A stretch of 64,000 bases of DNA, taken from the sequence record PV682947.1; one strand, written 5' to 3'. Origin of the DNA: Escherichia phage WPEC4. A program made the translations under genes and the position numbers. Under the pieces are notes generated by a model. The model was not told the origin of the DNA, ran no database searches, and worked only from the letters and a program-made list of their open reading frames with translations. Within the stretch, counting starts at the first letter, position 1. Every line of letters starts with the position of its first letter. Shown here piece after piece: positions 27,872-28,061 of the stretch.

Positions 27872-28061
27872 GTGGTAACAGGGTCGTTGACTTTTGTTAA
27901 GAGGGGCTTGCACTGCGGTAGTGTTAGAGACTACTTCTTCAGAGGTTAGCTACCAAAGAGGAAAAGGAATAGTCTCGGCTCAAGAACTTTTACGCTGAAA
28001 GTTGGGCTTGGTCTTAGAGAATGTAGCGGTTCTCTACAATCGTCAGCGTCTCTGTTACCAC
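27872..28061 (+). ncRNA. candidate structured leader/small RNA with paired termini
   Basis: Perfect 10-bp inverted repeat GTGGTAACAG / CTGTTACCAC closes about 190 nt; internal TAGAGAA...TTCTCTA stem. Confidence 0.3.

Follow-up and report, generated by a model that had tools for sequence, protein, structure and literature searches.

A structured RNA with paired ends, probably a non-coding module of tRNA islands in enterobacterial phages

Analysis of a 64,000-nt stretch of DNA from Escherichia phage WPEC4 (sequence record PV682947.1; the whole stretch is called the window below) pointed to a structured RNA of ~200 nt, here named RNA A, at positions 27865 to 28067 on the + strand, from a predicted transcript start to the last base before a tRNA-Met gene. 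Comparison of the aligned sequences showed that the fold of this RNA is kept by compensatory substitutions in three clades of phages, and RNA A represents a small RNA family that is previously undescribed and absent from Rfam. We hold, with moderate confidence, that positions 27865 to 28067 specify a structured RNA that is released and stabilised by its paired ends and acts as a non-coding module of tRNA islands; the best reading of the RNA is that of an autonomous, horizontally exchanged non-coding module.

An earlier, sequence-only reading of this DNA had drawn attention to a perfect 10-bp inverted repeat, and the repeat proved real: its arms, GTGGTAACAG (27872-27881) and CTGTTACCAC (28052-28061), form the core of a closing helix of ~26 bp. 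With a repeat finder the arms lengthened to 35 nt (27868-27902 and 28031-28065), with 16 contiguous pairs at the outer end and 30 of the 35 positions paired when G-U was allowed. Bare 10-bp inverted repeats were not beyond chance (34 seeds within 250 nt in the window versus ~25 in shuffles); what is beyond chance is the extended helix, the whole fold and the compensatory substitutions in relatives. The minimum free energy of the 27865-28067 region was -76 kcal/mol, compared to -52.8 ± 4.4 kcal/mol for dinucleotide shuffles (z score, -5.3), and none of 200 shuffles folded as well. This z score, together with the covariation described below, bore out the proposal that a structured RNA with paired termini adjoins a tRNA gene and supported the closing stem. 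Model R1 scored the window element at 223.8 bits on the + strand versus 26.6 bits on the - strand, and the same asymmetry was seen generally (171 to 251 bits versus 24 to 31 bits in reverse, ~8-fold), with many G-U pairs. The asymmetry and the G-U pairs argue for an RNA made from one transcribed strand, the same strand as that of the tRNAs.

In the predicted architecture, all of it on the + strand, the closing helix (helix P1) leads through a junction motif into a 5-bp helix, P2, which encloses hairpins H1, H2 and H3, and a fourth hairpin, H4, stands between P2 and helix P1. The 5' strand of helix P1 spans 27868-27897 (segments 27868-27883, 27885-27890 and 27893-27897) and includes GTGGTAACAG, and its 3' strand spans 28036-28065 (segments 28036-28040, 28043-28048 and 28050-28065) and includes CTGTTACCAC; the window helix has 26 pairs in all, 22 of which are interrupted solely by one 1 x 1 mismatch. 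The junction motif, GUUAAGA in the window (27896-27902) and GUUAARA in the family, is the most conserved unpaired element. P2 is made of the strands GGGGC (27903-27907) and GUCUU (28011-28015), which are each other's partners. H1 (27910-27924; GCACU/AGUGU) has invariant G-U, C-G and A-U pairs at its base; H2 (27927-27976) is an arm of variable length, with the apical loop UUAGCUA in the window; and H3 (27977-28008; GGCUCAAGA ... GGGCU), which contains an AAGA bulge, is near-invariant inside Phapecoctavirus. H4 (28016-28035; AGAGA/UCUCU), with GUAGC in its loop, is the TAGAGAA-loop-TTCTCTA stem already noticed in the sequence-only reading.

The window region was 99 to 100% identical to phAPEC8-like E. 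coli myoviruses (Phapecoctavirus, Stephanstirmvirinae), and the 208-nt element alone gave matches in 70 phage records, most of them >95% identical. A second lineage (phiWec179/181/188/190 and PsgM04F) was found at 81% identity, and a third Phapecoctavirus variant was present in IMG/VR. Most records carry no annotation for this stretch, and a few carry a 34-codon hypothetical protein. Alignment of the Phapecoctavirus lineages with MAFFT followed by RNAalifold gave 70 pairs, 10 of which had changed on both sides, with two broken cells; among 13 Phapecoctavirus sequences, 98.6% of the cells were paired, compared to 41 to 46% with slid partners. Variation within Phapecoctavirus affected 3 of the 52 columns of helix P1 (6%), 27% of the inner helices, with compensation, and 35% of the unpaired positions.

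Default Infernal filters missed distant homologues, and every cross-clade search was run with the filters off. A model from the Phapecoctavirus lineages detected a full-length copy of the element in Klebsiella phage phi1_175008 (50 bits, E = 6e-14). BLAST from the phi1_175008 copy reached KP2025, KP13-26 and FKP3 and also returned a 33-nt match in Salmonella phage FSL SP-058 (N4-like, Schitoviridae), in which the model recognised a complete 165-nt copy (38 bits, E = 4e-11); UTK0002 and TR2 were further N4-like variants. The family as found covers three clades, namely, Phapecoctavirus, Klebsiella phages of the Stephanstirmvirinae and the unrelated N4-like Salmonella phages of the Schitoviridae, with an element of 165 to 205 nt that always lies inside a tRNA island. 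Model R2, built from all clades, scored every member at 86 to 186 bits. The search in Rfam and with covariance models that had been suggested as a check thus placed the RNA in no Rfam family, while our own covariance model found homologues in two further clades. Specifically, Rfam 15 (4227 models, with those of 6S RNA, tmRNA, RNase P, Y RNA, riboswitches, ribozymes, GOLLD and ROOL among them) gave no match to 27865-28067 at E ≤ 10 except an 11-nt, 11.6-bit chance match and, at E ≤ 1, none to the copies from the Klebsiella and N4-like phages.

In the family alignment A7 (12 sequences), 93.8% of the base-pair cells were standard, compared to 38 to 48% in slid controls, and 43 of the 65 pairs showed changes on both sides; the covariation score was 0.666 versus 0.240 in shuffles and was reached by none of 500. 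Both-side changes across clades occurred in 13 of 26 pairs of helix P1, 4 of 5 in P2, 9 of 13 in H3 and 5 of 5 in H4, and cells were paired across clades at 96.7% in P2, 100% in H1 and 98.3% in H4. The top two pairs of H1 were represented by 2 and 4 different pair types, and the hairpin H2, the length and sequence of which vary by clade, was retained throughout. Six nucleotides of the junction GUUAA.A (G, U, U, A, A and the final A) were invariant in all 12 members, as were family-wide the G-U, C-G and A-U pairs at the base of H1, the GG opening H3, G and A residues in the H4 loop and the AC after H4. A descriptor composed of the junction motif and the H1 base retrieved 25 true members and 1 chance match in ~1.5 Mb. 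The same architecture emerged from single clades: MAFFT with de novo folding of the N4-like clade alone gave the same P1, P2 and H1 to H4 (57 pairs, 11 of them compensatory), and MAFFT with RNAalifold of the Klebsiella clade alone recovered P1, P2, H1 and H4. Single-sequence folds were concordant in all clades (z scores of -2.6 to -6.1). The closing helix measured ~26 bp in the window, versus ~21 to 25 bp in the Klebsiella clade and 13 bp (+2) in the N4-like clade.

The motif scans, which covered IMG/VR, 185,579 bacterial genomes and a collection of metagenomes, brought in just four viral and two metagenomic contigs, each of which falls into one of the three known clades. Exact-motif matches were mostly due to chance: those to GGTTAGCTACCAAAGA and GTAACAGGGTCGTTGAC in IMG/VR were rejected with R1, and nhmmer confirmed not one of at least 120 matches to GTTAAAACTNTCTGCAC in the 185,579 bacterial genomes. 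Scanning IMG/VR with two gapped descriptors yielded no new clade, only a prophage coding sequence that recurred but lacked H1 and P1. The element had no blastn match in E. coli genomes, and model searches found no homologue in phi92 (Justusliebigvirus), Klebsiella phage 05F01, Felixounavirus HY02 or the tRNA region of T4. The only proteins common to the flanks of the three clades were translated tRNA genes and one 174-aa reading frame, which, read by eye, appears to be a tailspike N-terminal domain.

The promoter that the earlier reading had placed at 27829, upstream of the element, was recovered by a consensus scan as a sigma-70-type promoter (promoter P1, 27829-27858, + strand) with the -35 sequence TTGACA (27829-27834), an 18-nt spacer and the extended -10 sequence TGtTAGGAT ending at 27858. 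Among diverged Phapecoctavirus lineages the -35 sequence is invariant and the -10 sequence is TAGGAT or TAAGAT. Promoter spacing only places the predicted transcript start at about A27865. Promoter P1 (window 27829-27869) lies within a 16-nt palindrome covering the spacer and the -10 sequence, which is kept by compensatory changes in phiWec179 (AAACGTATCCT/AGGATACGTTT versus AAGCGTGTCTTA/TAAGATACGCTT), and a similar palindrome, CTAACAT..ATGTTAG, occurs at promoter P2 (window 28416-28445); these palindromes may be operators or else terminators of the preceding gene that overlap the promoter. Downstream of the RNA lie tRNA-Met (CAU; 28068-28142, + strand; ARAGORN, and 64.5 bits with the Rfam tRNA model) and, in the same transcription unit, tRNA-Arg (UCU; 28145-28219, + strand; ARAGORN and the Rfam tRNA model). 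The element had been described as ending 7 nt before tRNA-Met; its adjacency to this gene was confirmed, but the distance was not, as the closing stem ends 2 nt and the perfect 10-bp core 6 nt before 28068.

The order promoter, RNA, tRNA-Met (after a 2-nt gap) and tRNA-Arg is that of the window. The RNA of phi1_175008 starts 0 nt after the tRNA-Cys CCA, with a small reading frame downstream of it, and that of the N4-like phages starts 3 nt after the tRNA-Asn CCA, with a 165-nt structured spacer and then tRNA-Arg downstream. The Klebsiella and N4-like copies have no promoter of their own, the CCA of the upstream tRNA being 0 to 3 nt away. The description of the element as a leader between a promoter and the first tRNA consequently fits the Phapecoctavirus layout but not the Klebsiella and N4-like phages, in which the RNA follows a tRNA. 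Since the context differs between clades, RNA A is better regarded as an autonomous module of tRNA transcription units than as a promoter leader, and its positions suggest that at least one RNA end is always set by tRNA maturation. The N4-like spacer of ~165 nt before tRNA-Arg (L189:1670-1833, L190:1665-1829 and L053:746-914) is itself structured, with compensatory changes by eye. In the GenBank record of FSL SP-058, a 'tRNA-Lys' and a 'tRNA-Pro' overlie the RNA A homologue (L053:572-731; KC139517, 67815-67974); both were rejected, as the Rfam tRNA model finds none there and the real tRNA ends at L053:580-583.

In the mechanism that we favour, host RNA polymerase would start at the early sigma-70-type promoter and transcribe the RNA as the first element of an RNA - tRNA-Met - tRNA-Arg unit. 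In the window, the primary transcript would itself supply the 5' end of the RNA, where helix P1 begins, and the 3' end would be produced by the RNase P cut at the 5' end of tRNA-Met, 2 nt beyond helix P1; in the other clades, the 5' end would result from 3' maturation of the immediately upstream tRNA. The paired ends would then guard the RNA, once excised, against exonucleases and against RNase E attack that depends on the 5' end, and a stable discrete species would accumulate. Co-transcription and the steps of release by RNase P and tRNA 3' maturation follow what is established for RNase P and end-dependent RNA decay. On the strength of conservation and covariation, RNA A is most likely an excised stable RNA, and we infer a discrete transcript. 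The fold itself is likely to be the functional product because the core is conserved, single-stranded positions are invariant and unrelated phages of the same host family carry the RNA. A specifically folded RNA of this kind could act in trans by binding a protein of the host or the phage, as its ligand, decoy or scaffold. Such a trans-acting, protein-binding role seems the most likely one, if more weakly indicated, since the elaborate core and the invariant unpaired nucleotides are conserved, the placement with respect to promoters, tRNAs and reading frames varies, and the carriers are unrelated phages with a common enterobacterial host range. That RNA A belongs to a new host-directed, horizontally exchanged, compact and possibly self-associating class of RNA acting in trans on a conserved host factor (it might, for instance, inhibit an enzyme of RNA processing or a defence system directed at RNA or tRNA, or serve as a decoy for either) is a speculation that we consider unlikely.

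Several points weigh against an RNA released and acting as a module. The 3' end of the RNA in Klebsiella phages lies ~17 to 20 nt before a small reading frame rather than a tRNA, and this RNA could be part of an mRNA leader. The transcript start, the release by RNase P and the accumulation are steps that we infer from the DNA, and a literature search on non-coding RNAs or transcriptomes of Phapecoctavirus found none. The candidates for a partner protein encoded nearby are limited to a Ro-like DUF2828 protein, the co-occurrence of which with the RNA is inconsistent. The family is small (~83 phage records, plus 4 contigs from IMG/VR and 2 from metagenomes). Alignment A7 was fitted to the model, and the family-wide pair counts depend on that alignment; a sequence-only MAFFT alignment of all three clades recovered just 12 pairs (the H3 base and H4). 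The latter alignment fails because the sequences of helix P1 are unrelated and cannot be aligned, which makes it unusable as an independent test of the family, and per-clade alignments were used instead.

The excised piece may conversely be a by-product of a cis-acting processing or stability element whose helix P1 is cut by RNase III or shields the 5' end, and which keeps the adjoining tRNAs apart, helps them fold or protects them, a reading to which we give a minor share of the probability. The window helix, with 22 pairs around a single 1 x 1 mismatch and 26 in total, is long enough for E. coli RNase III; near-continuous double-stranded RNA of at least 20 bp is present in the window (22 to 26 bp) and roughly so in the Klebsiella phages. 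As in known RNase III stems (the rRNA-flanking helices and the T7 early R sites), the window ends give ~22 to 26 bp of double-stranded RNA in a polycistron near tRNA. The RNA, moreover, directly adjoins a tRNA in all clades and starts at the predicted 5' end of the primary transcript, and other long paired-end hairpins recur in tRNA islands. In the N4-like phages, however, helix P1 has only 13 bp (+2), too short for RNase III, and the whole inner core is retained. Because the helix varies from 26 to 13 bp, RNase III cleavage is not its conserved purpose, and the RNase III processing stem proposed in the sequence-only reading, while possible in this phage, does not hold as a conserved function. 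In RNA A it is the interior, not the stem sequence, that is conserved; a generic stem leaves the P2/H1-H4 architecture and the invariant junction and loop nucleotides unexplained; the position of the element shifts from the 5' side of a tRNA in one clade to the 3' side in the two others, one of which has a reading frame after it; and RNase P alone would free tRNA-Met. Paired-end hairpins of ~95 nt between tRNA genes, with weak model matches of 17 to 26 bits, were noted at L192:12635-12729 (HY02) and L026:13393-13488 (phi92), and more of them at L053:322-417, L189:1133-1228 and L002:4294-4388; the structured spacers of tRNA islands seem to be of more than one kind.

We deem improbable a function as an aptamer-like or catalytic RNA, be it a sensor of the riboswitch type, a new self-cleaving ribozyme helping to cut the tRNA polycistron, or a self-assembling RNA like ROOL and GOLLD, although such an RNA would account for the multi-helix junction closed by helix P1, its invariant nucleotides and the coincidence of the boundaries with tRNA ends. 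No ribozyme or riboswitch model of Rfam matches, even at E ≤ 10; the stretch 28036-28067 has no expression platform or terminator-like site, as the 3' strand of helix P1 runs into tRNA-Met; and a ribozyme would have nothing upstream to cleave in the window. As for self-assembly, which is known for ROOL and GOLLD, phage RNAs near tRNA islands that form homo-oligomers (PMC12286853), the palindromic loops UAGCUA (H2 in Phapecoctavirus) and UUGCAA (H3 in several Klebsiella and N4-like copies) could form kissing dimers, and the H3 and H4 loops are complementary over 4 to 7 nt in every member (e.g., UUGCCA:UGGCAA in TR2), but loop complementarity of 4 to 6 nt easily arises by chance. Still less probable is that RNA A serves as a Y-RNA-like partner for a Ro-like protein or is a degenerate derivative of a tRNA. 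Some YrlA/Y RNAs are phage encoded and combine a stem formed by both ends, which is typical of Y RNAs, with a structured internal module (PMC4201824). RNA A likewise has a long 5'/3' stem and an internal structured module, and GenBank places two tRNAs over the FSL SP-058 copy. The Klebsiella phages, in addition, encode on the same strand, ~1.4 kb downstream, a DUF2828/DUF7788 protein weakly similar to the vWA domain of Ro60 (E = 0.0046), the mycobacteriophage homologues of which are annotated as 'Ro-like RNA binding protein'. The Rfam YrlA (RF02553), tRNA and tmRNA models, however, have no match in any clade, and ARAGORN reports nothing there; the Ro-binding motif GNCGAA(N)G, which Y RNAs carry close to the 5' end (PMC4201824), is missing (the nearest in the window is GUCGUUG, and the Klebsiella and N4-like copies lack it), as are a T-loop in the aligned sequences and a T/D-arm mimic; and at 165 to 205 nt the element is larger than Y RNAs (80 to 130 nt). 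Nor does RNA A have a consistent Ro-like neighbour: the 64-kb window is without a DUF2828 homologue, just 6 phage records have a homologue at ≥60% identity and Phapecoctavirus probably lacks one, and Felixounavirus HY02 has the protein but not the RNA. E. coli K-12 is not known to have a Ro orthologue. A Ro-like partner was rejected as a general explanation on account of this inconsistent co-occurrence. The phi1_175008 protein (476 aa, DUF2828 plus DUF7788; L049:19947-21377) is encoded directly after tRNA-Arg in the tRNA island, and its homologues occur in 711 phage records, among them Felixounavirus, mycobacteriophages and Listeria, Vibrio and Campylobacter phages. Least credible of all is that the stretch serves as a small protein gene (a 34-codon TTG frame at 27894-27998, hypothetical in WPEC1 and PsgM04F) or as a DNA element such as an origin, an operator or a single-stranded DNA hairpin. 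The frame is open in three Phapecoctavirus lineages, and inverted repeats can act in DNA too; yet the frame starts with TTG, with no Shine-Dalgarno sequence seen upstream, nearly all changes within Phapecoctavirus alter the amino acid by hand count, and no frame or peptide is shared across clades, the longest stop-free stretches of the other clades being 25 to 57 codons in different frames. Substitutions that are compensatory for RNA pairing, the G-U pairs and the 8-fold strand asymmetry, which indicates one transcribed strand, speak against both a gene and a DNA element.

Returning to RNA A as a released non-coding module, we compared it with known RNAs. T4 makes two small RNAs from its tRNA region, the roles of which are unknown (PMC3014915), and the likeness to the stable T4 RNAs of this kind that had been pointed out earlier was sustained as one of niche. 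T4 rnaC and rnaD (the species 1 and species 2 RNAs) are, like RNA A, small RNAs among phage tRNA genes, on the tRNA strand and adjoining tRNA-Arg(UCU) (PMC3014915; T4 annotation), and rnaC is also strongly structured (z score, -4.6). They nevertheless have no sequence or structure homology to RNA A: R1 with filters off on T4 69000-75000 gave ≤11 bits and nothing on rnaC or rnaD, R2 gave nothing either, and rnaC has 139 nt and a tRNA-like T arm (CCGGGUUCGAAUCCCGG), whereas RNA A has 165 to 205 nt, no T loop and a closing helix of 13 to 26 bp. GOLLD and ROOL are structured phage and prophage RNAs of unknown function that often lie near tRNA islands (PMC12286853). They measure ~600 to >800 nt and contain pseudoknots, whereas RNA A is three to four times smaller and was found in enterobacterial phages only; the GOLLD and ROOL models of Rfam do not match it. 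RNA A shares, by its genomic position, the niche of rnaC/rnaD, GOLLD and ROOL without homology to any of them. The pRNA of phi29 is likewise a phage RNA of ~170 nt with an early promoter, paired ends, a multi-helix junction and complementary apical loops. It shows no sequence or model similarity to RNA A, however, and RNA A lies in tRNA islands instead of at a genome end by packaging genes, in myoviruses and N4-like podoviruses that package DNA without pRNA. 6S RNA (RF00013) is rod-like with a central bubble resembling an open promoter, while RNA A is multi-branched and has no Rfam match; and a retron msr-msd would agree with the inverted repeats, but the neighbours are tRNA-Met and tRNA-Arg and the flanking 2 kb contain no frame of the size of a reverse transcriptase.

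Other features of the window were noticed. A candidate 'RNA B' (window 28219-28408), between tRNA-Arg and the next promoter, has the paired ends AACAUUUUAnnAUGAAU and AUUCAUnnUAAAAUGUU and a z score of -3.5; it is 86% conserved with its central part replaced, its 51-pair consensus includes one compensatory pair only, and it has CACUGAUCAUG in common with the H2 loop of the RNA A homologues of Klebsiella phages. No homology was found among RNA B, the N4-like spacer and T4 rnaC/rnaD. Two tRNA-like genes were missed by ARAGORN: one at 28454-28540 (37 bits with the tRNA-Sec model), about where relatives have tRNA-Ser(UGA), and one at 28765-28849 (39 bits with the Rfam tRNA model), which is tRNA-Tyr in the WPEC1 annotation. 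A RyhB-like match at 30080-30134 (29 bits; threshold, 55) overlaps a terminator hairpin (30109-30127) after the last tRNA and is probably merely this intrinsic terminator. No phage record spans the point at ~30576/30577 (128 records match 29850-30576 only); the TelA-like gene at 30621-31685 is ~56 to 58 kb away and on the opposite strand in phAPEC8 and phiWec179; and the 100%-identical WPEC1, WPEC2 and WPEC6 records match the window in 8 to 17 separate places. The window probably derives from a rearranged or misassembled genome.

Members of the family are now annotated as intergenic DNA or hypothetical proteins or, wrongly, as tRNAs; the present analysis improves this annotation and defines a search model. 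The carriers are E. coli, Klebsiella and Salmonella phages of the therapeutic type, which are easily grown and engineered, and the common host range of unrelated carriers makes a host-directed function testable. Small stable RNAs have been known from phage tRNA clusters since the species 1 and 2 RNAs of T4, and GOLLD and ROOL mark tRNA islands as a hotspot for unexplained structured RNAs; RNA A adds a compact family supported by covariation. If RNA A were indeed a host-directed RNA, it would be a small functional counterpart of GOLLD and ROOL and a clue to why non-tRNA RNAs reside in tRNA islands.

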